The notes under the pieces: generated by a model
Told to the model about the DNA's origin: nothing
The model's input: only the letters and a program-made list of their open reading frames with translations
Database searches by the model: none
Source of the DNA: Geosiphon pyriformis uo1
Taxonomy: Eukaryota; Fungi; Glomeromycota
DNA length: 64,000 nucleotides
Reading direction: 5' to 3'
NCBI GenBank assembly: GCA_016748015.1
Contig: JAAOMT010000128.1
Span: forward strand, 379,538-443,537
Part shown: positions 1,998-30,039 of the stretch, one piece after another
How positions within the stretch are numbered: the first letter of the stretch is position 1
Layout of the letters: the number at the start of each line of letters is the position of its first letter
Position numbers and translations under genes: made by a program

Positions 1998-2024
1998 AAA
2001 TAACACAGCAACAACAAATTCAAA

Positions 2025-4669: not shown

Positions 4670-5300
4670 CTACATTCCACTCAAATGCAAGGACTGCCAC
4701 AAGAAACTCTCCTCAATGGAAGCCTGCATTTCACCTGAAGAAGAATATGAAAATTATACTTGTTATTACTGTAAGGCTTGTCACAAAGAATGATAGGACC
4801 ATCTAATAAAAAGAAGTGGAAAATGGGACAACACTCCTTGTTTGACTTGTGAAAATATGCTACCAAAAGAATGCAATTAGATTGATGTAGCAATGAGAGG
4901 AGGAGTCTGTGATCAGACCTGCCAATATGCTTTATTAATTTCAGAAAAAGTAAAAAGAGGAACACCCTTTAATGCGGCATACAACAGTGCTTTCAACAAA
5001 CTTTATCACTATTCCCATGATGCTGAGATGATTTTTGACCTAGCAATGGCATTAATTAATGGAGCTACCAAAGAAAATGTCTGTCAAATGAAAGAAGCAG
5101 AATACATTGAATACACCATGGAATTAGCTGGATTCAATTATGAAGATGAAGTAGAAGTCTACCACCAAATTGCAAGTTACACCTACTCAACCCAAGAAGC
5201 TCAAATTCAATGATTAGAGCAAATGAACATTAGGCTATGTGAAGAATGCATTATGTCTTGTGATGAACAGTGGTGTTCTGAATGCTATGCTCTTAGCATT
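4670..5300 (+). pseudogene. A Cys-rich (multi-CxxC) domain between protease and dUTPase
   Basis: CKDC, CYYCKAC, CLTC, CDQTC, CEECIMSCDEQWCSEC. Confidence 0.7.
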
Positions 5301-5409
5301 CCTCTGCCCAGTAAAAACGATAAAAATGAAATTGAATTTGGAGAACCTGAAGCAACAAAAGAAATTGAAGCAACACCCATCTATCTCATCGAAAACCAGC
5401 CTGCCTTAC

Positions 5410-5840
5410 AACTCAAATACTTCAACAACAATGGACAAGGAATAAAACCCGAAAAAGCACATGAAATTGATGCTGGATATAACTTAAAATATCCAGATAA
5501 GGATACTCTCATTCTCAAATCCAAATCTCTCACAAAAATCAACCTCAAAATTGCTCTCAAAATCCCACCAGGAGCAATGGTTCAAATTGCCTCCCGGTCC
5601 TCTCTAGCAAGCAAAGGAATCAATGTCAGAGGAGGAATAATCGATGCTGAATATACTGGTGACATAACAGTAATACTCCAAAACAAAACTGACAAGCCAT
5701 TTAAGATTGAACATAATGAGAAAATTGCCCAAGCCATTTATTTACCCTTAATCAACATTTCGGGTTTACAATTAGTCAATCAAAGAGAACTATTGAGAAA
5801 AAGTGAAAGAGGAACTCAAGGTTTTGGTTCAACTGGACAA
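5410..5840 (+). pseudogene. dut: A trimeric dUTPase domain
   Basis: All five motifs: DAGYNL, RSSLA, GGIIDAEYTGDI, KIAQAI, RGTQGFGSTG. Confidence 0.92.
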
Positions 5841-6359
5841 TTCACAGTTCCAGTAAACATAGCTTTCAATAAACAGAAAGAATCTCACCAGATTTTACAA
5901 CTTCCACAACCAATTACCATTTCACTCTTTAGAGAACACCTTGAAATTTATACTTGTGAAAAGCCAACAACCATACAACAAATTTTTGAGTCCAACGAAC
6001 AAATCTGCTTGGAATATAATATCTCAATCCCAAACATTTATATTCCAGAAGGAACAAAGAAAATCTGAGTTACTTTTTACAATCCCAACAATTTCCCCAT
6101 AGTTTTATTAAATAACTTAGAAATTGGAGTTATTCACAATAATATTTTTCAATAAGAATTACCCCAAACAGTCCCTGATTTCTCTGAAATTATTGGACAT
6201 TTACTACCAAAAATCAACCCAAATCTCAGCTCTGAAAACTACTATGTTGTTATAGAAAAACTATCTCGAATCAACATGGGACAACTTGAACCACAACAAC
6301 AGAACCAGCTTAAAGAGCTAATTGCAGAATTTGCCAATATCTTTACCGAAAACAACAAT

Positions 6360-7675
6360 GACTTAGGAAGAACTGATTTAGTTCAACACCAAATCTATAC
6401 AGGAGATACCAAACCAAGGCGACAACAAGCCTACTAAGTTGCTCTAGAAAGTCACCAATTTATCCATGAAAAATACAACAAATGCTCAACAATGGGCTTA
6501 TTCAACCATCAATGAGTCCATAGGCCTCACTTGTGGTCTTAATTAAAAAGAAAAATGGAAAGATATGATTTTGTGTTGATTATTGACAACTCAACAGTGT
6601 TACTATTGAAGATGCCTACCCCCTTTCCTGAATTGATAATATGTTAGACACTCTTGAAAAATCCAAATACTTTTTGACATTAGATTTAGAAAGTGGATAC
6701 TGACAAGTTGCCATGGATTCCAAAGATTGCTTCAAAACAGCATTCACTACTCAAGGAGGAAATTACGAGTTCAACATAATGCTTTTCGGATTATGCAATG
6801 TACCAGCAACATTTCAAAGACTCATGGATGTTGTTTACAAAGGCCTTCTTTGGAAATCAATAGTTGTCTATCTCGATAATACTGATGTTTATTCATCATC
6901 TTTTGAATTATATTTAAAACACCTGCAAGAAGTTTTTCAATAATTACAGAAAGCAGAATTGAAACTGAACATCGAAAAATGCTATTTCAGAAAAACAAGT
7001 TTGGTTTTTCTTGGCCACATTGTAAGCAAAGATGGAATTAAACCAGACCCCGGAAAAATCAGTACTGTCAAGAACTTCAAGACTCCATAAAATATCACAG
7101 AATTGAGAGGATTTGGATTAGCTTCCTATTACCGAAAATTCATCAAAGGATTTTCAGAAATTGCAAAATTCCTTAACTAGCTCACTACTAAAAACGTTGA
7201 ATACAAATGGACAGAAAAACACCAAAAAGCTTTTGAAATTTTCAAGGAAAAGCTGACAACAGCTCCAATTCTCGTCTACTCAGACTTCAGTAACCGATTT
7301 CAACTAGCTACAGACACTTCTTATACTGCCTTTGGTGCCATCTTATCACAATTAGATGACAACAGAAATGAGCGAGTAATCGCTTATGCTAGCAGAACAT
7401 TAAAACCAGCTGAGAAAAACTACCCTGCCACAGAACTAGAAACAGCAGCCATAATCTGGGCCCTACATCACTTCAACCTTTATTTCAGGCCTAAAGAATT
7501 TGATATTATCACTGATAATATTGAACTCAAATGACTTCAGAACAAAAACACCCAACTGAATGCAAAACAAACTCGATAGACAAGATTTTTAGCCAACTAC
7601 TGATACATTGTACACCACAAACCAGGAAAACTCCACACCAACATTGATTGTCTCTCAAGAATGAGACAAGATTAA
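6360..7675 (+). pseudogene. pol: A reverse transcriptase-RNase H
   Basis: KTAFTT, M-FGLCN-PATFQR, YLDN (YLDD), TD-S, IAYASR; ends LSRMRQD-TAA at 7673-7675. Confidence 0.9.
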
Positions 7676-7715
7676 CCAACACCTATTTGAATTAACAACA
7701 ACAAAACAACAAACA

Positions 7716-9101
7716 ATGAACCCCGAAAACTACAACAATCTTAAACAATATCTGGAGACATTAACAATCCCAACAGATTGGTCTCCAGATGAAAAACATC
7801 AGTTACAACAACAAGCCAAACAATACTTCTTACACAACAACATTATTTATTATCGAAACTTCAGAAACCCAGACAGTCCACTCTGATTAATACAAGAACA
7901 TAAAAAAGAAATTATTTTATATAACATGTACTCAGACCCTTCATTAGCACACCTAGAAAAAAACAGCACCACTCAGAGAACACTAGAATATTATTTTTGG
8001 CCTCAAATAAGAAAAGACATTCATGAATATGTTAAGTCTTATGATAATTGTCAAAGAAGAAAAGGAACTCACCCTACAAAACTTTTAAACCCAATCAAAG
8101 TTGGACAGCCTTTTGACCGAATTGGTATTGATTTAGTTGGACCACTCCTTATCACAAACCAAAGAAACCGTTATATTGCAGTAGCAGTAAACTATCTCAC
8201 CAAATGGCCTGAAGCCAGAGCTATTCAATGAGCAGATGCAAAATCAGTAGCAAATTTCATCTATGAAGACATCATTTGTAGACATGAATGCCTAATAGAA
8301 CTTTTATCTGATCAAAAAACACATTTTGTGAGCAATTTAATCCAGAAAATTTGTAGACGATTTAATGTCAAGAGACCATTATCTTTGTCCTACCATCCAC
8401 AAACAAATGGACTTGTAGAATGTTTCAACAGAACATTGTTTGAATCATTAGCCAAAGTCTTAACCAATTTTGAGCAAGAATAGAATTTCTTTATTTCATT
8501 AGTGTTACTAGCATATAGAACACTAAAACAAGATACCACAAAACACATACCATTTGATTTAACTTATGGAAGGACAGCAACATTACCAATTAGTTTTACA
8601 GTGGAAACATACCCAGCACAACCAATTAATAAAAACAATTTCCAGGAAACACTACAACAAAGAGCCTACACTCTGCTTAGCACATTGGAAGGAAAATGAT
8701 GAATAGCAGCCACCTATATTAAACACTCCCAAGCTCAACAAAAAGAACAGCATGACGACAAATTGCCTCCAGTTACCAATGGATTTAAAATCAGAAACAA
8801 AGTTCTCTTACACAGAACTAAAACTGAAAAACAATGGAGTGGAAAATTTGAAAATAAATGGGATAGACCATTCTTTATCTATAAAGTCCTAGACAACAGA
8901 TCATACAAGCTAAGACTTGATGACAAAATCCTAGCAAAAGTTGTACATGGAGATTGTTTGAAACACTATAATTTCAGAAACAATCCTGAACTATTAATTC
9001 CACAAATTGGCACACATTCCTCTTTAATTAATCCCAAAGATATTCCCTGGAATTTAGAACCAATAGTTGTCATTGAACAATCTTCCAACTTGAACACTTA
9101 A
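7716..9101 (+). pseudogene. A integrase (own ATG; GPF-type C-terminus, no chromodomain)
   Basis: MNPENY start; YYFWP, IGIDLVGPL, YHPQTNGLVE, KWD-PF, LEPIVVIE. Confidence 0.9.
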
Positions 9102-9170: not shown

Positions 9171-9834
9171 TGTTATGGGTTGAAGTAACAAGCTAACGGA
9201 TAGCAAGAGAGAACAGTATTGTATGGTAATGGAAATAAACAAAGAAGGAATTACAATAAGGGAGCGAATTGAATAAGTAAGAATTCAATGTGCATGATCA
9301 GTCTCATAAAAATCACAGTCGCTAATTTTTTCTTAAATCTGAAGGTAGAGAAATAGTCCGTGATTGTCAACAAGATAACACCGCTGCTATTATTCTATGC
9401 CTCAACTTGGTAATTCTTAGAATCAATAACAGATATTGTTGTACTTTTTAATCATTTCTTTATTCAATGAATTACAAGAGCAAGCCAATTGCTTCTCAGG
9501 CTAATTCTAACAAATACAAATCAAGAAGGAAAAAAGATAAGGTATGTGAATGCCAACAAGTAGATACTTGAAAGTAAGGAAAGGGGAATAAGTGATTATG
9601 AGAGAAAGTAATTGATATTATTTATTTCGTTACTTTTATCATCTTTCTACAGCTAAGAGAATCATTGCTTATATAGCTATCTAAAGTGGTCAACAACCAG
9701 GTTAATGATCAGGTCAATGATCAGGTCAATGGTCAGGTCAACGATCACTATCTAAAAATAAAGTGGTTAATTATATAATATTAGTGGCTAATACATGTGA
9801 TAATTAATAAAAACTATGTGTTTTAACCGTAACA
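9171..9834 (-). repeat. B 3' LTR
   Basis: TGTTA...TAACA; repeat of 16168-16845; TGATCAGGTCAA tandem units at 9695-9747. Confidence 0.93.
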
Positions 9835-10556
9835 TCATCCTCTTCAAAGAGATTGAGCTCTGGCAAAATCAAACTATTTATGGGATAGTCTATGTGAAAA
9901 GTTTTGTCTAACTCAAAATTAACTAGTTTGTTGAAGTCTTTTGTGGATAGAGTATATAGTACTTGAGGCGAAATAAGCTTTGTATCCAAGAGACCAAATC
10001 TTTATATTAGAGTTTTGGCTTTTCTAGCAATGGTTAAAACTCTTGGGACATCTAAACGTATAATGCCCAAAATTTCCACTTGTATCTCTGAAGTTGTTTT
10101 CTTTATGAGCTTCATGTCTTCTATGATTTCACTAAGACAACCATAGAGTTCTAGTTGTCTTCCATATAACAAGTTTTTGTCTATGGGCAAGATTTTTTGT
10201 ATTGTTTTTCCAATTGTGCTAGAAGGTGAAAATATCACTGCTGTTATGCTTTCCAGCAAGTATTTATCCATTTTGCCACCAATTCTTTCTCTTCTGGTAG
10301 TTGTTTTCTTTGGTCTAATAATAGTGTGAGTTTCACTGTTGTCTGTTATAGTGGTTTGTTTTCCAATAGTCAGAGTAGCATTTGGATAGTTCTTGATCCA
10401 GTACTCATGGAGAGTATAGAAAGCGTTTTGAATGTTTTGATCCAGGAAATAATTGTTCATGTTGATTGAAGATACCTCTGTTTTGGGAATGGTGCATTTA
10501 TTTATATCTAATTTTTGCTGATCATTTGGGTCAGTATTACCACAACAGGTAACCAA
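9804..10556 (-). pseudogene. B ORF3 (unknown accessory protein, frameshifted)
   Basis: ORFs 10002-10556 and 9804-9989 between IN and PPT; motif similarity to ORF3 of A, C and D. Confidence 0.6.
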
Positions 10557-11821
10557 TCAGGTCGTTTGTGATATTTCTTGAATTGTGTGCCATGAACAGG
10601 GCAATCACTGAATATTGTTCCATATTGATCTTGTAAGATATAAGAACTATTGTTCAAAACTTTGTTGACTATAAAGGGTCCTTTCCACCAGCTAGAGAAT
10701 TTATTACCATAAACATTGTCTCTGTCTGAACGGTATTCCAAAACTAAGTCACCAACACTTAAGGAAAGTGTTTTATAGGTCTTTTTCTTTTTGAGCTTCT
10801 CTTGGAACTGTTTTATCTTTTCAAAGACAATTATCCATGCTTCTACTAATGAGTCAAGAATGGTACCAAGTCTTCTTTGCAAAATGTCTTTGTAATCTCC
10901 TATTGTTATTTCTTCAAAAGGTATTGTTTCTATATCCGTTTCTATTGGTAGAGTTGCCATTTGTCCATAGAACAGATAAAAGAGTTTATAACTTGTTATG
11001 TCATGATTCACAATTCTGTAAGCAAACAAGACTGAAGGCAATACTTTGTTTCATAGGTTGGTTTCTTCACTGGTTTTGGCTAGAGTTTCACATAGTGTTC
11101 TATTGAAACATTCTACTAGGCCATTTGTTTGGGGGTGATAAGGGGAAGAGAGTTTATGACGTATTCCCATTTTTCTGCAAAATTCTTCAACCAGTGTACT
11201 GAGAAAAACTCTTCCTCTATCAGATAAAAGTTCTTTGGGGCAGCCATGACAACGGATAATATCTTCATAAATGAAATTGGCAATTGAGACTGCTGTTTGA
11301 TCTGGGGTGGCTTTTGCTTTTACCCACTTTGTAAGATAGTCGGTAGCTGTGATAATGTATCTGTTGCCATCAGGAGTTACTGTTAAAGGTCCAATAACAC
11401 CTATACCAATTCTATCAAATAGTTGACCAACAGAGATTGGATGGATATCTTCCTTGCAATTGGGTTTTCCTCTTCTTTGGCAGGTATCACAGGTTTTGAT
11501 GTATTCAGCAATGTCTTTTCCCAAGGTAGGCCAATAATAGCAAGCTAAAGTTTTCTGAATTGTTTTTGTTTTTCCAAAGTGTCCAGCTAATAGATCAGTG
11601 TGCATATTGTAGATCACAATTTCTCTTTCTTCAAATCTAATGACTCTCTGGGGGCAGTCAGGATCTTTTTTATTTCTTTTATATAACTGGTTCTGGTGAA
11701 TCAAATAGAAATTTGATTGTTTGCACAAATGTTCTCTTTGCTGTTAAGTATAGTCTGGTGGGTATTGTCCTTTACCCAAAAATTTTATTAAAGCAGAGTA
11801 GTTGTCCAAGTCCATTATCAT
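10508..11821 (-). pseudogene. B integrase (separate ORF)
   Basis: ATG at 11821 or 11815; GHFG, YYWP, CDTCQ, SDRG, YHPQTNGLVE, WKGPF; ends WLPVVVILTQMISKN. Confidence 0.9.
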
Positions 11822-11880
11822 GTTTGTTTGTAGGGGAGTTACAAATAATTAAGTTGGTTTGGTTTAAGAGGGTTTTACTA

Positions 11881-14574
11881 TCACTGGATGGTAAGTCTGG
11901 AAAGAGCGTTGGCATTTTGATGATTAGCTTCTTTGCAGTGTTGAATGTCATAGTTGAATTTGTCCAAGTGGAGTATTCAGTGAGTTATCCGTTTATGTTC
12001 CAAGTTTCTTTTGTTGCATAGCCAAACCAAAGCTTGGTGATCTGTTACCACCAAAAATTTCACACCCTTAAGATATTTGTCCCAGTAGCTGGTAGCCCAA
12101 ACTACTGCTAAGCATTCTTGCTCAGTGACTGAATAGTTCTTTTCTGCTGGTGTGAGAGTTCTGTTGGCATATGCTATGGCATGTTCCCTGCCATCTTCGT
12201 CTTTCTGAGAAAAAACAGCACCAAGTCCATAGCCAGATGTATCAGTGTGGAGGAAAAAAGGTCAATCCAAATTAGGTTGCATGAGGATGGGTTCTGTAAC
12301 CAGTTTTTTCTTCAGAATTTCAAATGCTTTTTGTTGATGAGTGCCCCAGTGATAATTGATGTTTTTTCTAAGTAGCTGATTGAGAGGAGCAGCGATTTTG
12401 GAGAAATCCTTGACAAACTTGCAATAATAAGAGGCCAAACTAAGAAAAAAGCGTAGTTCATGAACATTCATTAGTTGTTTAATGTTTTGAACTTTTTCAA
12501 TTTTGGCTGGATCAGAGAAGATTCCATCTTTTGTAATAAGATGGCCAAGGAACTGGGTGGATTGATGTCCAAAGAATGATTTGATTGGATTGATCTTGAG
12601 ACCAGCATTTCTAAGGAGGTCAAAAACCTTTTGCAAATGTTCAAGGTGTTCATCCCAGGTTTTTGAGTACACCATTATGTCGTCCAAGTAGACTAGAACA
12701 AAGTTTTGTTTTACTGATTCAAATACTTTGTCCATTAAGCATTGAAATGTTGGAGGAGCATTTGTGAGACCAAAAGGCATAACTGTGAATTCATAGATAC
12801 CATACTTGGTGATGAAGGCAGTTTTCTTTCTGCTTTCTGGATCCATCTCTACTTGCCAGAATCCAGCAGTTAAGTCAATGGTTGAGAAAAAAGCGGCACC
12901 ATGGAATTGGTCTAGCATTGCATCAATCTTGGGAAGTGGGTACATGTCTCTTTTAGTAATGGCATTTAATTAGCAATAATCAACACAAAAGCATAGGGTT
13001 CCTCCTTTCTTGGATACCACTACAACTGGGAATGCCCATTCACTCTTGGTTTTCTGTATGAATCCAAGGGTTTTCATTCAGGTTATTTTCTTTTTGATAA
13101 ACTCATTATTGCATTGGTTGGATTGATAGGGCTTCAAATGGATGAGGCGAGTTTCTCTGGTGATGATGGTGTGTTGTATCACATGTATATGTCCAGGAGG
13201 TTCACCTTTTTTTGAGATAACTGGGCTGTTTCTAGCCAGCAGATTTTTAATGTCTACTTTTCTTTCTTCTTGAGAGAGTTCTCTTTGTTTTACAACCAGT
13301 GATTGGATTTCAGGTGGTTTGTTTTCAAAGGACTTTTGGACTTCTTTTATTTTCTCTTGGGGTATCAAGCTGATTGGTTCCCAATCTTTGTAATAGATTA
13401 GGCAGGACATGCATTTATCACTAGGAAAATACAATGGTTTATCACACCAGCACTGGGCACAAGGACTATGCCACCAATAACTGTATTTGGCTTTCTTGCC
13501 TGGCTTTCTGTCAAAGGTTCTTCTGAGCATGTCATAATAAAGCCAGCAGATCAGCTTGCCATTAACAATGATTCCTTCTTTATCTGCCTTGACATTATCC
13601 AGTAGTTTGCCATTGCTAGTGAAGATGGTATAGGCGAGTTCAGCAGTTTCTTCTTGTTCTTCTTGTTCTTCTTCTTTCTCACTTTCTTCATCATCTGATT
13701 TATCTGATTTATTTTCTTCTGGGCTTTGCTTGGATACTGGGGGAGTTGTCCAATGACAACACTTAACCACAATGGGTTTCTTACCACATCTGATGGTTAG
13801 TTCACAGAGTTCATAATCAAGCAAAGCCTTTGCCTTCTTGAGCCATTCATTGCCAACAATAATGGTGTATTTTTTTGCTTTAGACACTTCCATATCAGTT
13901 TCAATGCTGATGCCATTGATGCGGACAGGAATAGCTTTGGCTATGCCAAGTCCTTTTTTCTTATCACCATGCACATTGGTCATTGGTTATGTGGATGGTT
14001 CATCAATTTTTCTGCCAATTGCTTCAAGAAAGTGTTTGGCAATAACACTAACAGATGATTCACTGTCTAGGATCAAATTGATGAAGTAGCCAGCCACTTG
14101 GGCTTTACAAATTAGAGAAGTGACATTGCTATTGTCAGCAAGTCCAGCTTGGCGAGGGTGTTTGTTGGTTTTGGGTGTCTTTTTCTTTGGAATCAGGAAT
14201 TTGCGAAGATCTTTTCTGAATTGTGGATGGGTCATCAATTGGCCAAAGGTTATATGTGCTGGAGTTTCTATAAGGTCTTTGACAACAGAATAGGGACCGG
14301 ATTTTTGTACTATTTCTGGGGATTCCAACTTTGGAGGGTTCTTGAAAACTTTGGCTTTTGGGGGCTCATTGTTGTTAGCAGTTGATGTAGAAGCTTTATT
14401 GGGGTCTAGAACGAAATCAACTTTGGCTTTCTTCTTCTTTCTTGTGGATTCAGAGGGGTTGATTGCTAATTCATCCATGTTATGGTTATCATCAGTTAAG
14501 TTAAAAGCATAAAAGAGGTTTTCTTCTGGTTGGCTTGCACTCTCACCCTTTGGAGGTGCACCTACCAGTTTAAA
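11881..14574 (-). pseudogene. pol: B pol (protease, short Cys region, RT, RNase H) in the -1 frame relative to gag
   Basis: LILDS, IIVGNEWL, YPLPKID, MPFGLTNAP, VYLDDI; ends ALSRLTIQ followed by TGA TAG TAA. Confidence 0.9.
14536..14574 (-). promoter_or_regulatory. -1 ribosomal frameshift signal of B
   Basis: T TTA AAC heptamer, 6-nt spacer holding the gag stop, then a TGCAC...GTGCA stem; the -1 frame reads FKLVGAPPKGESASQPEE into pol. Confidence 0.8.
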
Positions 14575-16115
14575 AGCTGATAAACAGTGGCTTCAACTAA
14601 GAGATCCTCTCCAAAGAAATTGATGTTGGCATGATTGGGTCTTTGGTTGGGCACATTGTTGTTGTTGATTCTGTTGTTCTGAGCATCATTGTTTCTGGGG
14701 ACTGGTGGAGGCAGTGGAGGATTGTTGCAATTTCTTGAAAAGTGTCCAGTTAATCCACAGCGATAGCATACAGGTGGGCCACGATTTTGTTGTCTTTGAT
14801 AAGGTGGTTGCTGGGACTGATTGAAGCATGGTTCAAATCTGGGTCTTTGTGGTTGCTGATTTTCTCTGACTGCTTGGGCTAAGGGTTCTAATAACCGAGC
14901 AAGATTTGCTGTGAGTCTGTCTATTAACTGTTCATTTGGATCTTGAGTGTGAGTGGCAAAAGAAGTAGCAGCCATTTGAGGGGCAGAAGCCATGACAGGA
15001 ACAGGAGCAAAAACTGGTAGTGTGGATCTCAAGTGCATCCTTTGGTTGTCTTCAATTCTTTGTGCTAATTCAATGGCCATATTCATGGTGGGATTATCTT
15101 TTAGGGCCAGGAGGGGCCAAAAAGCATATGATAGATCAGTTTTCAATTCTTTTGTGAAGGAGTGAATTTTCTGCTCTTCTGTCCAATTTCTTCCAGTGTC
15201 TACTCATTTGATTAACTTTCTGATTGCTTTGGCATATTCGGTTACAACTTTACCGGGACCTTGGGTTCTTCTTTCCAATTCCATATGCCATTTTGATATT
15301 AATATTGGGGTTTTGAATTTGTTTTCAAACCGGGTAGTAAAAGAAATGTTGATTTTTCCCACATTTGCTGGTGTCCATCTAATAATTCTTTGCTGGACAT
15401 TGGCATCTGTTTCTTGTAAGAACCAGGTAGCAGGGGATCCTTGAAAGTAGCCACTGACAATTTGGAACTTGTACTCATCATTATATTAATTGGCTGTAGT
15501 GGCTCTTTCAAAGTCATCCAATTATTCAATTGGATCTTGTGCATTACCTCTAAATAATGGTATTGGAGTGTTGTTTCTTTGCCTTAGAGCAGTTTGTATA
15601 CCTTGGAGGGCGGCCAAAATGTTTGCTTGCATGGGGTCATTAGCCATTGGTTCAGGGGTAACTGTTTGTGTAGACAAGTCTGATTCGCTTGATAAAAAAT
15701 CAAAAACAGGGGCAGTTTGATAGCTTTTTTCTTCTGTTTCAAAGGGAGTTTCAGTTGCTTGATGGGCAGCAATCCAAATGTGGATTTGATGATTCAGATA
15801 TTCGAAATCAGGGAGCTGTTGTTCAAAGGTTGCAGAATATAAGAGCTGATTGATACTGTTGTTTCTTTCTTCAAAGTTGTTTTCAAAATAAGCTTGGTCA
15901 AAGTAATAGGTTGTATAAGCTGTGTAGGTTTCAGCTGAATGCTCGTTCAGGAACCAGTTCCAAAAGTTTTGGAATTGTCTATTGGATTGTTCTTCAAGGG
16001 GGAAGCAGATCAAGCAGGAGGGCAGAAGATTAAGTTCAATAAAACTTTGGTCATTTTTGTTGTGTGCTGCAAAGTGTTCTTCTGATTGCTGTGGCAGATA
16101 TGAGTAATCACTCAT
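14562..16115 (-). pseudogene. gag: B gag
   Basis: PLFRG--QDPIE capsid start; CYRCGLTGHFSRNC knuckle. Confidence 0.88.
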
Positions 16116-16142
16116 ACAATGAGGGAATAAGTGAATTTTGAC

Positions 16143-16161
16143 AACCTCACAGGGAGCACTA
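16143..16161 (-). promoter_or_regulatory. PBS of B (tRNA 3' end AACCUCACAGGGAGCACCA, probably elongator tRNA-Met), 6 nt from the LTR
   Basis: TAGTGCTCCCTGTGAGGTT; the H copy reads TGGTGCTCTCTGTGAGGTT. Confidence 0.8.
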
Positions 16162-16167
16162 CTTTTA

Positions 16168-16845
16168 TGTTATGGGTTGGAGTAACAAGCTAACGGATAG
16201 CAAGGGAGAACAGTATTGTATGGTAATGGAAATAAACAAAGAAGGAATTACAATAAGAGAGCGAATTAAATAAGTAGGAATTTAATGTGCGTGATCAGTC
16301 TCATAAAAATCACAGTTGCTAATCTTTTCTTAAATCTGAAGGTAGAGGAATAGTCTGTGATTGTCAACAAGATAACACCACTGCTATTATTCTATGTCTC
16401 AACTCGGCAATTCTTAGAATCAATAACAGGTATTGTTGTACTTTTCAATTGTTTCTTTATTCAATGAATTACAAAAGCAAGCCAATTGCTTTTTAGGCTA
16501 ATTCTAACAAATACAAATCAAAAAGGGGAAAAGATAAGATATGTGAATGCCAACAAGTAGATACTTGAAGGTAAGGAAAGGGGAATAAGCAATTATGAAA
16601 GAAAGTAATTAATATTGTTTATTTCATTATTTTTATCATGTCTTTCTACAGCTAAGAGAATCATCACTTATATAGCTATCTAAAGTGATCAATGATCAGG
16701 TCAACAATCAAGTCAATGATCAGGTCAATGGTCAGGTCATTGATTAGGTCAATGATCACTATCTAAAAATAGGGTGGCTAATTATATGACATCAGTGGCT
16801 AATACATGTGATAATTAATAAAAACTATGTGTTTCAACCGTAACA
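16168..16845 (-). repeat. B 5' LTR
   Basis: Repeat of 9171-9834. Confidence 0.93.
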
Positions 16846-16944: not shown

Positions 16945-17622
16945 ATGTTAGCTTTAAAAACAATATCCAAATTATCTATTACTATTACTAGAAACCACAT
17001 TAATTATACCCAAACAGAAGTAGTCACAAATTTAGCCCCAAATTCACGAAAATATCACCCATATAAAAAAAACACAAGAAGTTATTCTGGAATTCACCTG
17101 CCAGAACTTTTAAAGCTTGCTTTAAGAGAAAACTTAATGCTCACTCTTATTAGTATTCCACCAAATGCTATTATTTAACAAAAACTTCAATTGTGTCTTA
17201 ATGAAGAAAACTACAACTATACTCCAATATATAGATATTTTTATATTGGAAAAACACTTCACAAACAAAAACGGGAGCTTACAGCAGCAAACCTCACAAA
17301 AGAAGCTATTTGGAAACAACTCTACAATGAATTCAAGACAACAGCTGGACCTACAAATAGTCATTATAAACTAAGAGCTGCTTTTAGACTTTATGACTTA
17401 TTTCACACCTGTGAAAACGTTCTACAAAACCCAATTTTTCAGCCTTTAAAGATTCAATACATTGGAAAGCTTACAGAACTAAAATTTCAACAATTTTCAG
17501 ACCAAATTTCTTTAATAATTTTGGATTATTATCTGAAATTTACAGACAGTAGTTGGACTTCGATGGAGCTCAGTCTTGAGGAAGAGTTTATGTTACCAGA
17601 CAAAATTAGAGATATTGTTTAG
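16945..17622 (+). pseudogene. A ORF3 (unknown accessory protein) running through the PPT into the 3' LTR
   Basis: ORFs 16945-17178 and 17191-17622, in the same frame; homologous remnant in G at 49165-49299. Confidence 0.65.
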
Positions 17623-18568
17623 CATGAAATTACTCTTATAAATCTTATCATTAATTAGCATATATTATCGTTTTTAATTATCACTTATTACATTAGCAAA
17701 ATGTCTGAAATTATCATTTAATTAATAACCCAATTTGTACATAACACAAATGTAACCTAAGTATGATGATCAATCATGCAATACCCTGAAATATGTAACA
17801 TTCAAAAATTCACCAAAATTTGTAGAAATTCGCCGAAATAATTGATAGTTCACCAAAATATCTAATAGTTTGTAGAAATAACTTGTAGTTCGCCGAAATG
17901 TATCTTTAGTTCAGTGAAATTGTAGAAAAGAGCAAAGTTCAAGTTCATAAAATAGTGTTATGACAAGTTGTATAAAAGAAGAGCTTCTCTCTTCGAGAAA
18001 ATATATCTTACTTTAGATTTATTACTTAGAATCATTCCTACACACACAAAAAGAAATAAATATCAAATAATTCGAAAAACCAAATTCTTTAATTATTGCA
18101 CTTGGAAAATCCCCAAAACCCAACTAACGTTTTGAAATTGATTAGTTACCAATTTCAGTAAACTGTTAGTGACTCTAGGCCTGGATAGAAAACGTTTTCT
18201 TTGATAAAATTCTATTTCTTTTACATTTCTTTTATTTTTTTTTATTTTCTTATTATAATCATTAAGGTAACCTACAGACAAGATTCCTGTAGAAGAGTTG
18301 ACTTTTACAGCAAAGTAACTACACATTTTTAATGAGCTTCCAGACAAGCAATTCCTGGGAAAGAGTTGACATTTACTACAATGTAAATACACAAAACAAC
18401 TGGCACGAAATTGGCCATTCTACTTATAAGTTCAGCAGTTCAAATTATAGAAAATAATTTGAAGATAAATTCAGTTACTGAAGGTTCAACCACATCCAGA
18501 AAACGTGAATTTACAGCAAACAAGCATCAACAACATTTAGAAAAAGAGACCAAAAACCTCCAATAATA
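17591..18568 (+). repeat. A 3' LTR
   Basis: Repeat of 1012-1979; preceded by the PPT GAGGAAGAG. Confidence 0.92.
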
Positions 18569-19698: not shown

Positions 19699-20620
19699 TG
19701 TTACTTATAGAATATAGGAAGTATATTATTATTAGCAAGTAAATATAAGCCAATCAGAATAGACATAGTAAATGTGGAATTCCAGGATTCTTCTCAGAGA
19801 AATTGCAGGATTCCAGGAATTTCAGGATTCTCTGGCAAGGAATTGTAGGATTCCAGAATTCCAGAATTCCTCTCATCAGGAATTGCAGGATTCCAGGAAT
19901 TTCAGGATTCCTGTCATAAGGAATTAAAGAATTGAGGAATCTCAAATATGTATATATAGCAGTAGTGTTAAAAGCAAAAGAGAAAAGACACCAAGAATTC
20001 TTAGCTTAGTTATCACAATCCTCAAATAAATAATTATTCATTATATCAAAGTTATTCTTCACTATCAACACTTCATGTTGATAGTAATTAATACTTAACT
20101 ATACTGGAACAATAGCTCTTGATCACGACTATTGATGGTATACTAACTTGTAAATCACCTTGGCTTATTTTTTATTTTCTCTTTTATCTTTTCTTTATTT
20201 TCTTTATTGTCTACTAACTTGATTAAAAGATTTACTCCTGGAGGACTTATGGAGAAATAAAACTTACTTAAACAATACTTACTCTTGGAGGACTTATGAA
20301 GGAATAAACTTGCTTAAACAATACTTACTCTTGAAGGACTTATGGAAGAACTGATGTCAGGAAACAGCACTAGTATACACTTATGGAGAATATCGTACCA
20401 GGAGAATCATCAACCATCAAGCTGAGCAAGCAATCGACAAAACTATGGTTTCAGGAAACTACTGATAAACTGTTACCATTGAATCTCTGTTCATTATACA
20501 AAAAACTCAATTGGAAAACCTTCAGATAAATACCTTCAGATTATTATCGTTACCAATCACTTTGAGCATCAAGTTACAGGTTTGTTATTTACTCGATACC
20601 CCAAAGAATCACCTATAACA
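19699..20620 (+). repeat. C 5' LTR
   Basis: Repeat of 29117-30039; GGAATTCCAGGA array at 19774-19940; TATATATAG at 19951; 46-47 bp tandem repeats at 20232-20350. Confidence 0.93.
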
Positions 20621-20680
20621 TTTGGTGCTCCTTGTGAAATATAATCCTACAGAGAACCAGCACCAACAACACCATTCAAA

Positions 20681-23411
20681 TGTGGCAGAATCAGAAATTA
20701 TAGGAGCCAACCACTTAGGATTTGCAAAATCCTTGTTTCAACAATACAGCCAACAATTAGAATTAAACAGTAATCACTACCTAGCTGAATTAGCCTTCAA
20801 CTATTATGTCAACAATAAAATTACAGACTGTTTAGGAGAAACCGTCAATATCAAATCAGCAAGAGAAAATTTCTATACAGAATTATTTCAACACACTAGC
20901 TTACCAAGAAATCACAGTTTCGTCCCAATTATCAGAGAAATTAATCAAACCATTGAAAGATACACACAACAACAATTTTCTATTACCTATGTAGACAAAG
21001 GTAAAAGAAGAATACAAACACCAGCAGCAACACCAAAAGGAATACAGTTACCTAATTGGAAGAAACACAGAGTAGAATCACCAACTGCTCCATCATATCA
21101 CTACACACTTGAAAGCACCATCAATATTTTATCAGCAGACATGTCCACATCAAATGTGACATCAACATTTGGAAGATTTTAGTTCCAAAGCAAACAATAG
21201 AAAGAAGACTTATTAGGACCATACAGCACATATTTTGAGAGATTTAAATCATGATTCCCAACGCCATCAGGAATTTGATCACCAATACTCCAACCAGATT
21301 TTGGAGCCACTACTCTATGGGAATTATCAAAGGAAGAAGAGGAAAGAAGTGAAGATCAAGAATTCATTTACCAAAACCCAATTTCAGAAAACTTGAAATT
21401 CGGAATCCTGAACGTTCAAATTCCATGAAATCCAAACATAGAAAATCTGGAAATTGAAATTCCGAATATTAGAACTCAGCAAAATCAACACAATCAGAAT
21501 CTTAATTTAATTAATCAGCCAAATGTACCTCCAAATATTGTTATTAATCACCCACCAATTGATCTGATAATTAAACTCATTTAGCAGCCATCTCAACAAC
21601 CAAATCCACAAATCTAACAGTTACAAGAACCACTTCAGCAACCACCACTGCAACAACAACTGCTACAGCAGCCACAACAACAACTAAATGTAAACCAAAT
21701 AACTTATGCACCTATTGCCAAGTTAGAAAACTTTACCAGCAAAGAAGACGACACTCAAGCATGGATCAATGATGTCTTCAAGACCATCATAGTAAACAAT
21801 TGGGACGATGTCAGAGCCCTACAGGCAATCCCATACTTTTTCAAAGAAACTGTTAACTCTTGGTATCAGAGTTTAGCTGACAGACCACAAACATTCCAAC
21901 AATTCAAAACTGCCTTTCTGGAATATTTTAGCAATAATAACAGTATTAATTGTCTAGCCAATACTTTCACCACAATCAAACAGAATAATACTGAAGTAGT
22001 CACAACATATCTAAAACACTTTCATAGAGTTCTACACCAAATTCAAGCCATCAACACTGTATATTTCACAGAATCCCAGATTCTCAACCAGTTTATTTGT
22101 GGCCTGTGCAGTAGCATTTTGCAACACGTACATCTATTACATCCAGTCAACTTTCAAGCCACAGTCATACACACTAGAGATTTTGAATCAGCTAAGCTAG
22201 AAGCCAACCACGCTCAAGCTGTAAATTTAGTAATAAATAGATTATCTGATTTGGATTCCAAATTGAAGCAAATCAGTGATACCATTAATTAGAAAATCGA
22301 GGAATACTTAGTTAACAACCATCAGTCCATTTATCAACCTTCCCAAAGATGCAGTAATTAGGGAAACTACAATTGTTCCCAAAATCAAGTGTGTCCCTCA
22401 ACATTGGCCAATCAGTAGTGGCAGCCAGAGATGCATGTCTGCCACAACTGTAGTAAACAAGGCCACATAAGAGCCAACTGCAATGCTTATAACTGACAAT
22501 CGGGAAATCAACATTGAAATCCCGATCACTGATTCCAAACCTCGAATCAATATCAAAATCAAGAGCAAAATCAAAACACTTACCTGCCAATGATGCAGCA
22601 GCCAATTTATTAAGCACCAGTATATTAGACCCCAGTTTATCAACTGCAACCACCAGCAATATATTAACTACAACCATTTATAATATATCAACCACAGCCA
22701 CAAGTAATCTATCAACCTCAAACCATTCAAACACCACCCCAAAACTTACCTCAACATGAAATCCAAAGACCGAGAATGACACAACAAAACTGGAGATCAG
22801 TGATAGTTGTTCACCAACTGATTCCCAGTTCCTTCAACTCACTATCAGGATTGTATTCTCAGAATTCGGGTACCAGTGCCACCCAAAACCCGAATTCCCA
22901 GAACTATTTAAGTTTCCTGGTTACCCCAGAAGATGCCACACCCAGCAACCTGAAAACCAACCCAATCCAAAAACTTACCAGCAATATATCACTAGCAATG
23001 GTCACTGAAAATGAAACATTAACAGCCATTTTCTCATTTGAGTTCAAGAAAACCACTCCAGTCCCATTATTCAGTGGAGCTGCCCTTAAAGAGAAACCCA
23101 TTATAGCAATGTATACTGATGCCAAAGTAGATGACCACTCCATCAAATTGATCCTAGACAGTGGTTTAGCAGGCAACATTATCATGCAAAAACTCATAAA
23201 CCAATTAGGTCGCCAAGTTGATCGTGCTGCTAGTGCTCATATAATTACTACTAATGAAATGACCAAAACTCCAATTGGCAAAATTGACGATTTCCCATTT
23301 GAAATCAATGGCATTATAATACCTATCAAAGTCTTGGTAATGGAAGCCACACAATACCAGACTTTTATGGGCAATAATTGGTTATTAAAAACTCACGCTA
23401 CTCTCGATTGA
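20681..23411 (+). pseudogene. gag: C gag and protease (one frame, many CGA/CAA-derived stops)
   Basis: IAKLENF, CHNCSKQGHIRANC, LILDSG, MGNNWL. Confidence 0.85.
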
Positions 23412-23839
23412 ACCACCCAAGAACTACAATTAACCTTTGGTGGTCAGCATACTCGAACACTGGCCACTTGTGGCCACTTTAAGCCAAGCAATGCCCAACC
23501 ACTCATCGAGTTCAAGAAAGAAACAAGGAAATCTATCTGGGAAGCCTATCAAGTCTTGTGGGCCAACCAAGACCATAATGAGTTGCCACCAGTATCTTTT
23601 TAGAACGGCAATATTAAAGGAAAGCAAAAAGAAACAGAACTTACCTAGACCTCTAACCAAGCTTGGGAAACAAAAAATAACTACAACAAACCAGCCAATT
23701 GAGAATAGGAAGAGAAAGATAATGGAAAGAGAAAAGGGAAAAAAACCACATTGGAAGAGACCACCAGCACCAGCGAAATAACCAGTGGCTAAACCAGTTC
23801 ATACTCAGTTCATGAGCCACTACCACAACTGCCATATAT

Positions 23840-24470
23840 TCCACTCAAATACAAAGACTGTGAAAAGAAACTTTTTTCCATGGGAGCATGAATTGTGCCA
23901 GACAAAGACCACTGGATGCAAACCCATTACTATTGTAAGCTATGCCATAGAAAATGCTATGGCTACTCAAAGAAACAGAGCAAGTGGAACAATAAACTAT
24001 GTCTTACTTGCAGCGAACAACTGCTTGACAAAGGAATATGGAATGACATTCCTGGTTGAGGAGGAATGTGCGACACTTCATGCTAATACACAATCTTCAT
24101 TAATGACTGGGTGAGTCGTGGTACTCCGATTATAACAGCATGACACCGAGCACTCAATCGTTTAGATGGTTACTTCAACGACAAAAAGGAGATCTGGCAA
24201 ATGGCCAATGCCAAAGTAGAAGGTACTACACCCAATAAAATACTGGAAATTAAGAACAATTCTCCAGAACTGGTCAATATCATTTGTATTCCTAACCCAG
24301 ATGCTTTCATGGACAAAAAAACAGGTCTAGAAGACTTCCACAAATACTACCAAAATTTGGCACCTATAAGAAAAAAGCAAGAGCAGTGTTTAGAACAACT
24401 AAACATCCAATTATGTGACCACTGTTTGATTCTCTGTGACTTCTAATATTGTAATAAGTGTGATCTCATT
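23840..24470 (+). pseudogene. C Cys-rich domain
   Basis: KDCEKK, HYYCK, CLTC, GGMCDTSC, LCDHCLILCDF-YCNKCD. Confidence 0.7.
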
Positions 24471-24719
24471 TACAATTCACTACTACACATAATCTACATA
24501 ATCCTGGAGGAAATCAAATCAATCAGCAGCTGCGCATCCAAATCAGAATTACCGTTCAATCCCAATTCAAACTCTGACAACAACGACAACAAAAACACTG
24601 GTTCCAGCTCCATTCAAATTGATGATAACAACAATGATGATTTCAACTCAGATTCAAACTTCGACCCAAAATATGAACAATACATTGCACTGCCAGACCT
24701 CTCCAAAGAACAGGAGTTA

Positions 24720-25145
24720 AAATGGTATAGTGACAATAATGAAAGTATTATGCCAGAACACATGCATAATACTAATGTCAGGTTTGATCTGAGGTATCCA
24801 GAAAAAGATGCCATCAAATTGGAACCACATTTACATACTTGTATTGATCTGAAAGTAGCATTAAAAATCCCAACAACAACAATAATTCAATTAGCATCTA
24901 GGAATAGTTTAGTAAAAAGAGAGATTAATATAAGAGGAGAAATAATTGACACAGGATATGTAAGAAATATCATTGCTATGCTACAAAACAACTCTAAAAA
25001 GGCCTATATCATAGAACTAAACAAAAAGATAGCACAGGCAATATTCTTGCCTCTAGTGAAAATAGCACAGTTAGTATCAGTAGGAAATAGAGAGGAATTA
25101 GGGATAACAGCAAGAGGAATACAGGGATTTGAATCAATGGGTAGA
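24720..25145 (+). pseudogene. dut: C dUTPase
   Basis: FDL, SRNSL, IIDTGY, KIAQAI, RGIQGFES-G. Confidence 0.88.
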
Positions 25146-25659
25146 ATAGATGTACCAGTCAATATAGCAGAAAAAAAAATTGTTGACTAAGAAAAAATTA
25201 TCTCAATGGATCAAACAATTTTCATTCCACCATATAGCCAGTACATAGTAGAAATAAAGCAAGAAATAAAAGAACAGAATCAGATTTTTGAAGCAGAACC
25301 AACTCTTTGTGAATCAGGAGAGATTGGACTCATCAATCTTCATATACCAGCCAAAGATTACAGCCACATCAAAATTTCCATCTATAATAACACAGGAAAT
25401 GTCATAGTAATACCAGCCAGAACCATCATTGGATACTTAAGTACTGAAATAAAGAATCAACTACCAAGCACTATTCCAGACTTTCCATAGCTTTGTGAAT
25501 ATGTCGATATCACATCACAAACAATATATGGACGAAGCAAATGTTATTTGCTCCAACCAGAGCAATTGGAACAAATGAACATGGAAAACTTAGACCCACT
25601 CCAACATATGCAGCTCAAGATGTTGCTCAACAATTTCAACAACATTTTTGCCAGCGAAA

Positions 25660-26974
25660 ATGAGTTTGGCCAAACTAACATCATCTAGCATCAAATCAAG
25701 ACTAGAGATGCAATGCCAATTAAACAAAGAGCATACAGAGTACCACCAGCTAGCCATAAAATCATTCGTCAAGAGATAAACCAAATGCTTAACAACAGGC
25801 TAATTCAATTATCAATGAGCCCATGATCATCACCAATGGTACTTGTCCAAAAGAAGAATGAAAAAATCTGATTTTGTGTGGACTACAGAAAACTCAATAG
25901 TGTAACTCGTGGAGACAGCTATCCAACTCTAAGAATACAAAAATTGTTTGACACTTTTGGCGGAAACAAATGGTTCTCAACATTAGACTTAGACAGTGGT
26001 TACTAGTAAGTAGCCATGGATCCAGCCAACAAGGAGAAGATGGCATTCACCACTAGAGAAGGGAATTTTGAATTTGAAGTAATGCCCTTTGGCTTAACCA
26101 ATGCCCAGCCACTTTCCAATGGCTAATGGAAATTGTTTATACTGGCTTATTGTAGAAATCAATAGTTGTATACTTGGATGACACCAATGTATTCTCAAAA
26201 ACATTTGATGATCATCTTTATCATCTTCAACAAATGTTCGAAAGACTAAGAAGAGCAGGACTAAAGTTAAATGCAACAAAGTGCTTCTTTGGCAAGACAA
26301 AACTAAAATTTTTGGAACACATAGTTAGCAAAGATGGCATCAAAACGGATCCAGAGAAAATAGAGATAGTAAAAAACTTTCCAGTACCAATTAATGTAAC
26401 TAAATTGAAATCATTCTTGGGATTTGCAAGCTATTATTAATGCTTTATAAAGAACTTTTCAAAGATAGCTTAACCACTCAATAATCTGCAAACTAAGAAT
26501 ACAAAATATGAATGAACAGAAAGTCAATAGGAAGCTTTTGATATTCTGAAAAAAAAGCTTATTCAAGCTCCAGTACTGATCTACCCAGATCACAACAAAC
26601 CATTCATTATTACCACTGATATATTAGGCCAAGCATTGGGAGCAGTACTATTTCAGAAGGGACCAGACAGCAGAGAACATCCAGTAGCATATGCCAGCTG
26701 AGGTCTAACACCAGCCAAAAAAAACTATGAAACATCAGAACTAGAACATTTAGCAATCTATTGGGCAGTCATAAAGTAGAACAAATACTTGAGCCAAAAG
26801 TTTAATATATACACGGATCATAAAGGGTTAACATCACTTTAAAAGCAAGAATTTGATGACAGTCACCAATCCAGATGGAAAATGGCACTCTCACAATATA
26901 CTTATACTATACATTATAAGAAAGGAAAAGACAACAAAAATGCCGACAGTTTGTCGTGAATAAGACAAATCTAA
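25660..26974 (+). pseudogene. pol: C RT-RNase H
   Basis: VDYRKLN, MPFGL, YLDD, PVAYAS; stop at 26972-26974. Confidence 0.88.
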
Positions 26975-27036
26975 GAACATTTCAATCCAAAAATATAACA
27001 AAACCAGAACAATACCAATGAAAAATATAACAAAAG

Positions 27037-28419
27037 ATGAACATACAAAAATATTAACAACTTCAACATTATATAAACACTTAACAGTTTAAGGAGAATT
27101 TATCTCAAATGGAATGAAAGAGTATCAAACAACAATCAAAATATTTTATCACTCACTAAAATATACTTTATCAGAAAAATAGAAGAGATTTAGATCAACC
27201 AACCAAAGTAATAACAGAGCCAGAAAAAGAGACAATATTATTCAACATGCACTCAAATCCAACAGCAGGACACTTTCACAAAGAAGCAACCATGGAAAGA
27301 ACCAGAAAAAGATACTATTGGCCATCAATGTATCCAGACATCATCCAATATGTTCAAAATTGTGACGCTTGTCAGCAAAAAGAAGGAACAAGACCCAGTG
27401 AACCATTAAGACCAATCAAAGTGAGACAACTATTTAACCATATTGGAATTGATTTAGTCGGACCATTAACAATCACCAGCAGAGGAAACAGATACATAGC
27501 AGTAGCCATGGACTATTTTACTAAATGGCCAGAGGTGAAAGCAATTCAAAAAGCAGATATAGAATCTGTTGCCGAATTCGTTTATTAGGATTTGATTTGT
27601 CAACATGGATGTCCAAAAGAATTATTATCAGACCAAGGAACGCATTTTGTGAACAGAACATTAACAGAATTGAGCCAAAAATTCAGAATTAAGAGACCAT
27701 TATCATCACCATACCATCCACAAACCAACGGATTAGTCAAAAGATTCAACAGAACATTGTGTGAAGCAATAGCTAAGCTCAACCAAGAAAACCAGAACGA
27801 TTGGGATTTGTTAATACCATTAGTACTATTTGCTTATCAGACAATAAAGCAAGATACTATACAAGCAACACTATTTGAATTAGTATATAGTAGAACAGCA
27901 ACACTACCAATGGAAATAGAAGTCAGCACATACCCAACTGAACCAATAACAGAAGAGAATTTCAAAAACACATTGTTGAGAAAAACATATGACTTAATAG
28001 AAACATTAAAAAACAAATGACAGAGAGCAGCTGATAATATACAAAGGTCACAAGAGAAACAAAAAGAAAGACATTATAACCAACTACCAGATAAACCAGT
28101 TGAATTCAAGATTGAAGACAAAGTACTACTACATTGTACCAAAGCAGAAAAACAATGGAGTGGAAAATTTGACCCCAAATGGGATGGACCATTTCACATA
28201 GAAGAAATTCTAGGAAATGGAGCTTACAAATTAAGATTAAATAACAAAATCTTGACCAAAGCAGCACATGGAGATCGACTGAAACCATACCACCATATAG
28301 TATTATCATCCACCAGTAATATTCCACAACTGAGAGTACAGAGAATAATAGTCCAACCAGATGAGATTTCACGAGATCTGGAACCAATCATTATCATTGA
28401 TAACAACATGTCTAATTGA
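27037..28419 (+). pseudogene. C integrase (separate ORF)
   Basis: MNIQKY start; GHF, YYWP, CDACQ, SDQG, YHPQTNGLV, WDGPF, LEPIIIID. Confidence 0.9.
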
Positions 28420-28444
28420 TCAACAGAAAGAATATATAAAGACA

Positions 28445-29100
28445 TGGTTAACATGACGGAAAAACACAGAAAAATGGAAATTACCAACAACATCTATTTA
28501 TTAGCACAACAAATCTTTCAATTAATCCAACACCAGGAGATGGAAATTACAATCAATCAACAAACTATTCGATACAAAAGCACTGCAAGGATACCACAAC
28601 ACAAAGTACAGAGAAAACTCGAAAATGTTGTTGACAAGATCATGACCAAGGTAAAATTGGCCATAAAAGAACAATGAATAGTCAAATTACACCAAGAACT
28701 TACTGGAGAAACTTGGACTTGGTGAATGTAACAATTTCCGAAAAACTATTGTTATTTTCACTTGGGACAACACATAAATATCCAGAATTTGTATATTGAC
28801 AAAACAAAATGGTTATTCGACACAACAATACTGAGACAACTGGAACAATTTGTGGGAAAAAACAATCTGACCACACAAGCTCAAGCCATTTACTGGCTAT
28901 ATATGGGATTTCAAGACTGACCAAAAATCTTATTTAACACAGCAATAGATACAGTTACGAGTAATCAATTGAGAAAAATGACCAACACCCAATTTGAAGA
29001 ACTACAAACTCAAATAACACAAGTAATACTTGAAAAAAAAGTTCAAGAAATAATTCAAGAAGGGGAATTAAAAGAGTTAGATTTTAACAAAGCTCAATAT
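28445..29100 (+). pseudogene. C ORF3 (unknown accessory protein)
   Basis: LAQQIFQLIQHQEMEITINQQTIRYK aligns with D LSKQLFETIQKFSAQIEITINKKEIRYK. Confidence 0.65.
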
Positions 29101-29116
29101 TAAAAGAAGGGAATAA

Positions 29117-30039
29117 TGTTACTCATAAAATATAGGAAGTATATTATTATTAGCAAGTAGATATTAGCCAATCAGAAGTAGACATAGTAAATGTGGAATT
29201 CCAGAATTTCTCTCAGAAGAATTGCAGAATTCCAGGAATTTCAGAATTCTTTGGCGAGGAATTACAGGATTCCAGAATTCCAGAATTTCTCTCATCAGGA
29301 ATTGCAGGATTCCAGGAATTCCAGAATTCCTGTCACAAGAAATTGAAGAATTAAGGGATCTCAAATATGTATATATAGCAGTAGTGTTAAAAGTAGAAGA
29401 GAAAGAACACCAAGAATCCTTAACTTAGTTACTACAATCCTCAAATAAATAATTATTCATTATATTAAATTTATTCTTCACTATCAACACTTCATGTTGA
29501 TAATAACTGATATTTAACTATACTGGAACAATAGCTCTTGATCACAGCTATTGATGGAATACTAACTTGCAAATCATTTTGGCTTATTTCTTATTTTTTT
29601 TTTTATCTTTTCTTTATTTTCTTTGTTGTCTACTAACTTGATTAAAAAATTTACTCCTGGAAGACTTATGGAGGAATAAAATTTACTTAAACAATACTTA
29701 CTCTTGGAGGACTTATGGAGGAATAAACTTGCTTAAACAATACTTACTCTTGGAAGACTTACGGAGGAACTGACGTCAGGAAACAGCACTAGTATACACT
29801 TATGGAGGATATCGTATCAGGAGAATTATTAACCATCAAGCTGAGTAAGCAATTGACGAAACTATGGTTTCAAGAAACTACTGATAAACTGTTACCATTG
29901 AATCTCTGTTCATTATACAAAAAACTCAATTGGAAAATCTTCAGATAAATACCTTCAGATTATCATCGTCATCAATTGCTTTGAGCACCAAGTTACAGGT
30001 TTGTTATTTACTTGACACCTCAAAGAATTACCTGTAACA
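29117..30039 (+). repeat. C 3' LTR
   Basis: Repeat of 19699-20620. Confidence 0.93.

Follow-up and report, generated by a model that had tools for sequence, protein, structure and literature searches.

The window, that is, the whole 64 kb stretch of Geosiphon pyriformis DNA that was analysed, proved on self-comparison to be a stack of decayed Ty3/gypsy elements, inserted into one another. Pfam matches to protease, RT, RNase H, integrase and zinc knuckles were found in it, and their coordinates give the pol order PR-RT-RNase H-IN, the Ty3/gypsy type, in the elements A, A′ and B; the RT, RH and IN of elements C and D were located by tblastn. The LTR ends, TGTTAC...TAACA and in part decayed, together with the PPT, are as in Ty3/gypsy LTR retrotransposons. 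Target duplications of 4 bp are exact at A′ and B and degenerate at A and C.

Element A (+) begins with a 5′ LTR at 1012..1979, delimited by self-comparison and holding a U3 array of 20 bp period at 1230-1320. This is followed by a decayed gag-PR-dUTPase-RT-RH-IN region (1980..9101) and, after an interruption, by the 3′ LTR (17591..18568; 92.5% identity to the 5′ LTR; U3 array at 17809-17899). The interruption is element B (−, 9171..16845; LTRs 16167-16845 and 9171-9834), which has no dUTPase and was inserted, with a 4-bp target duplication, into the spacer between the integrase and the open reading frame studied here, ORF3. It is because B sits in this spacer that the ORF3 of A looks distant from the pol of A. 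Element C (+) occupies 19699..30039, with LTRs at 19699-20620 and 29117-30039 and a U3 array of 40 bp period. Of element D (+), 30045..39122 comprises the internal region and the 3′ LTR, which starts at 37870; the 5′ LTR of D, split by A, is found in pieces at 855-1010 and 18562-19480. A second copy of the A subfamily, A′ (−), lies at 48142..57880, with LTRs that are 95% identical and a 4-bp target duplication. Nesting at 855-39122 is three levels deep, with A in the 5′ LTR of D and B in the IN-ORF3 spacer of A; C is placed just downstream of the A-in-D nest, at the 5′ end of D, and D is the most decayed element of this nest.

A dUTPase was located between protease and RT in A (5430-5840), C (24735-25145), D (33442-33846), D′ (41236-40844) and A′ (53446-53036), and none was found in B or B′. 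The interval between protease and dUTPase holds a Cys-rich stretch with many CxxC pairs in A (4670-5330, +) and A′ (54202-53615, −); the two are 52% identical and have no Pfam match. Long N-terminal gag extensions, also with no Pfam match, begin directly behind the primer site at 15522-16169 (−) and 2004-2978 (+), and the comparison of B with B′ over this extension gave a dN/dS of 0.30. Decayed primer-binding-like sites of the form TGGTGCTC... were seen at 1980-2000, 16140-16166 (−) and 20621-20640. Between A′ and B′ there is a fragment of a DDE_1 (pogo-like) transposase (58464-58817, −; E 9.5e-8), and the stretch 45980-47450 is AT-rich and has no Pfam match in six frames.

The ORF3 frames

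A reading of the window from its letters alone, which we call the sequence-only reading, had described a conserved, non-env ORF3 in four families. An ORF3-like frame is indeed present between integrase and 3′ LTR in each of A, B, C and D, but every copy in the window is broken by stops or frameshifts. In A the frame runs from an ATA at 16903 to 17622 (+, 239 codons) with stops at 16924 and 17176. The start had been placed at 16945, which is Met15; the true start lies 14 codons before it, and the first helix that is gained in this way is conserved in distant relatives. The frame of B (−, 9804..10460, 218 codons) has one stop, at 10004, and runs into the LTR of B, whereas that of C (+, 28474..29103, 209 codons) has four stops and ends just before the PPT. 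In D (+, 37123..37855) two frameshifts as well as stops are found, the length of an open copy in the database being 244 aa. Only the C-terminal piece is available for A′ (−, 49148..49300), the remainder falling in an N gap at 49300-49681.

The number of stops in the ORF3 frame (A 2, B 1, C 4) compares with 7-25 in the five other frames. Open copies are frequent in the database: among the 120 listed relatives of the A protein, lengths of 239 aa (23 proteins) and 221 aa (25) recur, and of the 120 given for B, 20 have 218 aa. Whether the frames are open when taken beyond the window had been left to be checked; for A, C and D the database copies give open ORF3s. The motifs that had been quoted for ORF3 are present in the translations. 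The statement that the frame ends at the PPT is correct for C and D but not for A and B, where it passes through the PPT and about 10 codons into the U3 of the 3′ LTR.

A remnant of a further family, "G", had also been reported. A six-frame profile scan of the window gave one further ORF3 piece only, 49300-49148 (−), beside the N gap. This is probably the same piece, but it belongs to the sister subfamily of A: as the only extra profile match is the C-terminus of the A′ ORF3, a fifth family was rejected.

Relatives and homology

In three homolog searches all 120 relatives listed per search (of 203, 129 and 204 found) were hypothetical proteins of Geosiphon pyriformis; all 360 listed are thus from this fungus, and a large number are open and of full length. 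Profile-profile comparison by hhalign, using open database copies and covering 185-194 columns, gave probabilities of 83.6% for A-C (E 8e-6), 95.5% for A-D (E 1e-8) and 99.5% for C-D (E 3e-22). Across families the best HMM scores (21.6-95 bits) stood above those of 1848 decoys, none of which exceeded 10.1, and the A profile scored a median of 8.5 bits on C copies, not above the decoy maximum. On the strength of these comparisons, the homology of the ORF3s of A, C, D and A′ (209-244 aa) can be regarded as confirmed.

When 1.84 billion representatives were searched with a profile, 127 matches were returned. Ten were looked up; five were Geosiphon proteins and five were distant relatives from metagenomes. 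The DNA of one of these five, contig L001, was read for its layout and shows an integrase, a 316-nt spacer, ORF3, the same pre-PPT motif and an LTR start TGTTACC, which is the layout of the elements in the window. L001 and A′ are 58% identical in IN and 30% in ORF3. Of the 597 pattern matches listed in a metagenome scan, one was confirmed, and this was the query's own contig. A search of viral contigs gave no relative of the ORF3 protein P0404 and none of the A′ integrase.

The case of B is different. The claim of homology across four families holds for A, C and D (profile-profile probabilities of 84-99.5%), but it is not established for B, which reached an hhalign probability of at most 1.7% with the A/C/D profiles. 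When B is forced into alignment with A/C/D, all motif blocks come to lie collinearly, and the score is 18.0, the best shuffle giving 18.1. With the ORF3 profile no B copy exceeds 7.3 bits, and decoys reach 11.2. Six B copies were compared with the L001 ORF3 after removal of the PPT-coded tail, giving z values of 7.5, 4.8, 3.5, 1.7, 1.4 and 1.3; the best of these (z 7.5) was matched by 0 of 2000 block shuffles and has a BLASTP E of 0.002. The integrase of B is the most distant among the elements (40-44% identity). From these sequence comparisons the ORF3 of B is only suggestively related to those of A, C and D, and the chances that it is a relative seem about even.

Selection and rate of change

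Between A and A′ the dN/dS of ORF3 is 0.28, well below 1, as counted over the 45 comparable codons of this one pair (Fisher p 0.004-0.019, depending on rounding); the neutral expectation is itself below 1 because the counting method ignores transition bias. In the same pair integrase has a dN/dS of 0.31, and the values for RT, RNase H, protease and dUTPase fall in the range 0.13-0.22. When A was compared with a contig of the sister subfamily (run X2), codon position 3 held 28 of the 40 differences listed, of 52 in all (p 2.4e-6). Both tests bear on the C-terminal half of ORF3 in the A lineage. The earlier view of ORF3 as a retained accessory gene is borne out by selection and by homology in three of the four families: on the sequence evidence, ORF3 is a real accessory gene under selection, in A, C and D.

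ORF3 had been said to diverge far faster than IN. This is so between families, where ORF3 identity is 22-37% and integrase identity about 49-58% (A, C, D and L001). (A,A′) and (C,D) appear as groups in the ORF3 tree, from which B was left out, and likewise in the IN tree, and the path from A to C amounts to 3.5 changes per site for ORF3 against 0.93 for IN, a rate ~3.7 times higher. It is not so between A and A′ at the C-terminus of ORF3, where dN is 0.127 against 0.162 for IN.

Protein features and predicted structure

The highest 19-residue hydropathy is 0.27-1.29, and 0-3 cysteines are present, in 8 of 8 ORF3 representatives. As there is no membrane-length hydrophobic stretch and cysteines are few, ORF3 is, as had been proposed, not env, and an env or env-like identity was rejected.

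A structure model of the ORF3 protein P0412, built from a 76-sequence alignment, has a mean pLDDT of 81 (86-98 in the core); the model from the A sequence alone reached a pLDDT of 47. Predicted are a short helix (7-20) and a beta-hairpin (25-38) at the N-terminus, a disordered linker, and a core of six helices (54-182), with a long last helix. The product would be soluble, with a predicted all-helical fold. The best conserved positions are Y102, G108, N145, R155, L156, F160 and G181, and N145, R155 and F160, among the most conserved, are structural or basic. No conserved acidic, His or Cys set was seen in 11 family representatives. In each of the family representatives (11 of 11) the stretch 121-162 carries a net basic charge, as counted without a null control, and an acidic tail is confined to some of the families.

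Searches of Pfam, PHROGs, NCBIfam and PDB sequences gave nothing credible for ORF3, and Foldseek with the P0412 model gave 0 matches at E<=0.001 in PDB and BFVD. The modelling that had been recommended thus yielded a confident model but no significant fold match; this null result does not amount to a new fold. Structural comparison by VIA with 48,161 chains gave no row at Z>=5 among the best 50. These include Spo0J (Z 4.1, rmsd 5.0, 93 aligned, model residues 78-207), the KorB DNA-binding domain (Z 3.4, rmsd 4.5, 90 aligned) and ParB on parS (Z 3.3, rmsd 3.2, 59 aligned). The Spo0J and KorB alignments extend over the whole ORF3 core. The ParB-family rows are tied with unrelated helical proteins, with PNPase and designed proteins above them; the PNPase helical domain reaches Z 4.5 over ~60 residues, and many of the best 50 rows are helical interaction scaffolds. 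VIA probed mainly the core, the N-terminal helix-hairpin and the C-terminal helix being barely covered. The resemblance to the ParB/Spo0J/KorB DNA-binding domain, at Z 3.3-4.1, is below significance. No sequence link to KorB emerged when this one ParB-type member was compared as a single sequence: it came 17th among 41 plasmid proteins with the ORF3 profile (E 0.44). Neither a ParB CTPase nor a PD-(D/E)XK domain was matched in ORF3.

A second lead is DUF1016_N (PF17761), for which Pfam matches over the same helices were obtained at E 0.12 and 0.037. The score of P0012, 12.9 bits, is below the gathering cut-off of 32.8 bits, the match occurs at E<=1 in 2 of 21 ORF3 members (best 0.037), and it is absent when B, C or D is taken alone. 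The Atlas score for this lead is 0.85. A profile of eight YhcG N-terminal domains (L006, a 2-residue stub, and L010 being left out) was aligned with the ORF3 core by hhalign over 55 columns with a probability of 25.6% and E 7.5e-4; the score of 30.3 was reached by 0 of 79 block shuffles, one of which scored 28.8. This lead was singled out, in hindsight, among about 24,700 families; for a choice made across all of Pfam, an E of 7.5e-4 is not significant. DUF1016_N of YhcG is described, in PMC1189080, as mainly helical and of unknown structure and function.

Atlas leads for P0412 were an unnamed Mucoromycota cluster (0.94), closterovirus coat protein (0.93) and translation repressor (0.90). An FtsQ model (E 4.6e-4) was set aside, as it matched only four A rows of 21 and is confined to one family. 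If DUF1016_N is taken to be a helix-turn-helix, as we presume it may be, the weak leads converge on a helix-turn-helix-like core in the predicted structure, no fold match being significant.

The U3 repeat arrays

The array near the start of U3 differs by LTR family, as the sequence-only reading had supposed. A and A′ share TTCGCCGAAA, and the motifs are TCAATGATCAGG in B, GGAATTCCAG in C, ATAACATGTTAT in D and TTGCCCTAG in L001. Each LTR holds 3-17 copies of its own motif and 0-3 of foreign ones, the motifs having been chosen on the very LTRs used for the counts. Palindromes occur within several of these motifs, and dimeric binders often have palindromic sites. Arrays of this family-specific kind are a common feature of the U3 of LTRs, and it is usually host factors that bind them; such factors could equally bind the arrays seen here.

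Discussion

Sense additional ORFs located after pol and before the 3′ LTR make up a known category in LTR retrotransposons (PMC7264820), and bdelloid lineages pair a dUTPase with varied ORF3s (PMC5408684). The ORF3 described here has the same position and orientation and likewise occurs in many copies. The additional ORFs of those reports are env-like or encode a GDSL esterase or DEDDy exonuclease, whereas the present ORF3 is non-membrane and has no evident catalytic set (PMC7264820, PMC5408684). Unlike the additional ORFs described, it also has no convincing Pfam, PHROG or NCBIfam match. No paper describing the ORF3 family was among those listed in a literature search, and Repbase or Dfam may contain a description; the protein family is unnamed, and the sense ORF after pol is a known category.

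Three known systems offer models. Tas/Bel1 of foamy viruses is, like ORF3, an accessory protein whose gene lies beside the 3′ LTR, with 209-308 aa and poor conservation between viruses, and its U3 response elements are not conserved either (PMC3798896). Tas has a demonstrated DNA-binding domain, an acidic activation domain, a dimeric state and an internal promoter (PMC3798896), whereas ORF3 is known from its sequence and predicted fold. No homology between the two is shown, and the host of ORF3 is a fungus and its element has no env. VANC of VANDAL, to which the sequence-only reading had likened ORF3, is an element-encoded factor with family-specific tandem repeats as targets, as the model for ORF3 would have it, but it belongs to plant DNA transposons and has no sequence link to ORF3 (PMC5735166). 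CERV of the C. elegans element Cer1 is, as ORF3 appears to be, a novel accessory protein, other than env, that an LTR retrotransposon encodes; it is translated from an mRNA that is spliced and acts in the export of genomic RNA, and no homology to ORF3 is shown (PMC10309623).

The best explanation, which we put forward tentatively, is that ORF3 encodes a separately expressed nucleic-acid-binding regulator of its own U3 array, analogous to Tas and VANC, that keeps the element transcribed. ORF3 would be an old, selected accessory gene of the dUTPase-bearing Ty3/gypsy lineage. It would be expressed apart, from its own ATG, via an internal promoter or splicing, and its product would act in the nucleus. 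Reads of two runs placed on A′ gave no joint between leader and ORF3, a result that carries no weight against splicing. In the nucleus the basic helix pair (P0412 residues 126-160), within the helix-turn-helix-like core, may contact DNA, and the protein would act in trans on the U3 repeat array of its own family to give activation or anti-silencing; ORF3 and the U3 arrays would then co-diverge. Selection on ORF3, its position, the homology among A, C, D and the metagenome relatives, the lack of a membrane-length segment and the family-specific arrays are observations on which this explanation draws. Binding to DNA of the own U3 in particular is favoured, weakly and non-significantly, by the helix-turn-helix-like leads and the basic helix pair of the model. 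The alternative offered in the sequence-only reading, a translational activator of the downstream ORFs, was rejected: ORF3 is the last ORF, so no ORFs lie downstream of it in cis.

A more specific version, which we consider improbable as it stands, is that a bacterial helix-turn-helix module of ParB/YhcG type was taken up by a fungal LTR retrotransposon lineage and became a family-specific transactivator or anti-silencer co-evolving with the U3 arrays, B included, and that it was a possible driver of the LTR expansion in Geosiphon.

The basic helix pair would suit RNA as well as DNA, and ORF3 might instead be a post-transcriptional factor in the manner of CERV or Rev, binding genomic RNA for export, stability or packaging. 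CERV provides a precedent in a Ty3/gypsy-type element (PMC10309623), the Atlas leads for P0412 include an RNA-virus coat protein and a translation repressor, and the PNPase helical domain is found in several of the VIA top rows. The coat-protein lead, however, has 156 features in common, fewer than the 170 usual for true members, and coat protein is absent from the best 50 Foldseek BFVD rows, while the PNPase rows are limited to residues 80-145. We regard a role of this kind as possible but doubtful.

Fast divergence between families combined with purifying selection within them would also be compatible with a conflict factor, one that binds proteins of the host silencing machinery (small-RNA or DNA-methylation) and blocks it without recognising the element sequence. 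The lack of a conserved catalytic set and the helical interaction scaffolds among the VIA rows agree with this, and the copies in the window carry TAA and TGA stops, as expected of C-to-T decay, which may be their cause. Such a factor would, however, leave the conserved basic residues unexplained, and no candidate partner is named; we think this rather unlikely.

It is less likely again that ORF3 is a particle or integration cofactor, one that binds Gag, IN or the ends of the cDNA, or that directs insertion towards other elements. ORF3 does travel with pol, the elements of the window nest in each other's LTRs and spacers, and a ParB-like core could coat cDNA. The LTR ends TGTTAC...TAACA are nevertheless alike in all families while ORF3 differs greatly, and nested insertions are what one would expect when 41.2% of the genome, as reported, is LTR sequence (PMC11952901). 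All other roles, taken together, have a slim chance. That the frame is a by-product, a cis-acting sequence or a captured fragment rather than a working protein gene, as the breakage of every window copy, the overlap of the last ~20 codons with PPT and LTR and the reliance of dN/dS on 45 codons of one pair might suggest, is largely refuted and very improbable given the many open full-length copies among the listed relatives, the third-position bias, the conservation at the protein level (22-37% identity) and the confidently predicted fold.

To our knowledge, regulators of their own expression encoded by retrotransposons are little known outside the complex retroviruses. Should ORF3 bind its cognate U3 array, it would give transposons a virus-like on-switch, and A/A′, C, D and L001 would be matched protein-site pairs for the study of self-activation or escape from silencing. 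Even if it does not bind U3, hundreds of Geosiphon "hypothetical proteins" become one unnamed transposon protein family, with a fold that is confidently predicted and has no close solved structure.

Just upstream of the PPT a GAGCTCA-type motif is common to A (17566-17590), B (9835-9860), C (29090-29116), D (37841-37869) and L001 (3091-3117), wherever ORF3 ends. In A the motif and PPT (17566..17590, +) lie inside ORF3. The motif is probably a cis element of reverse transcription.
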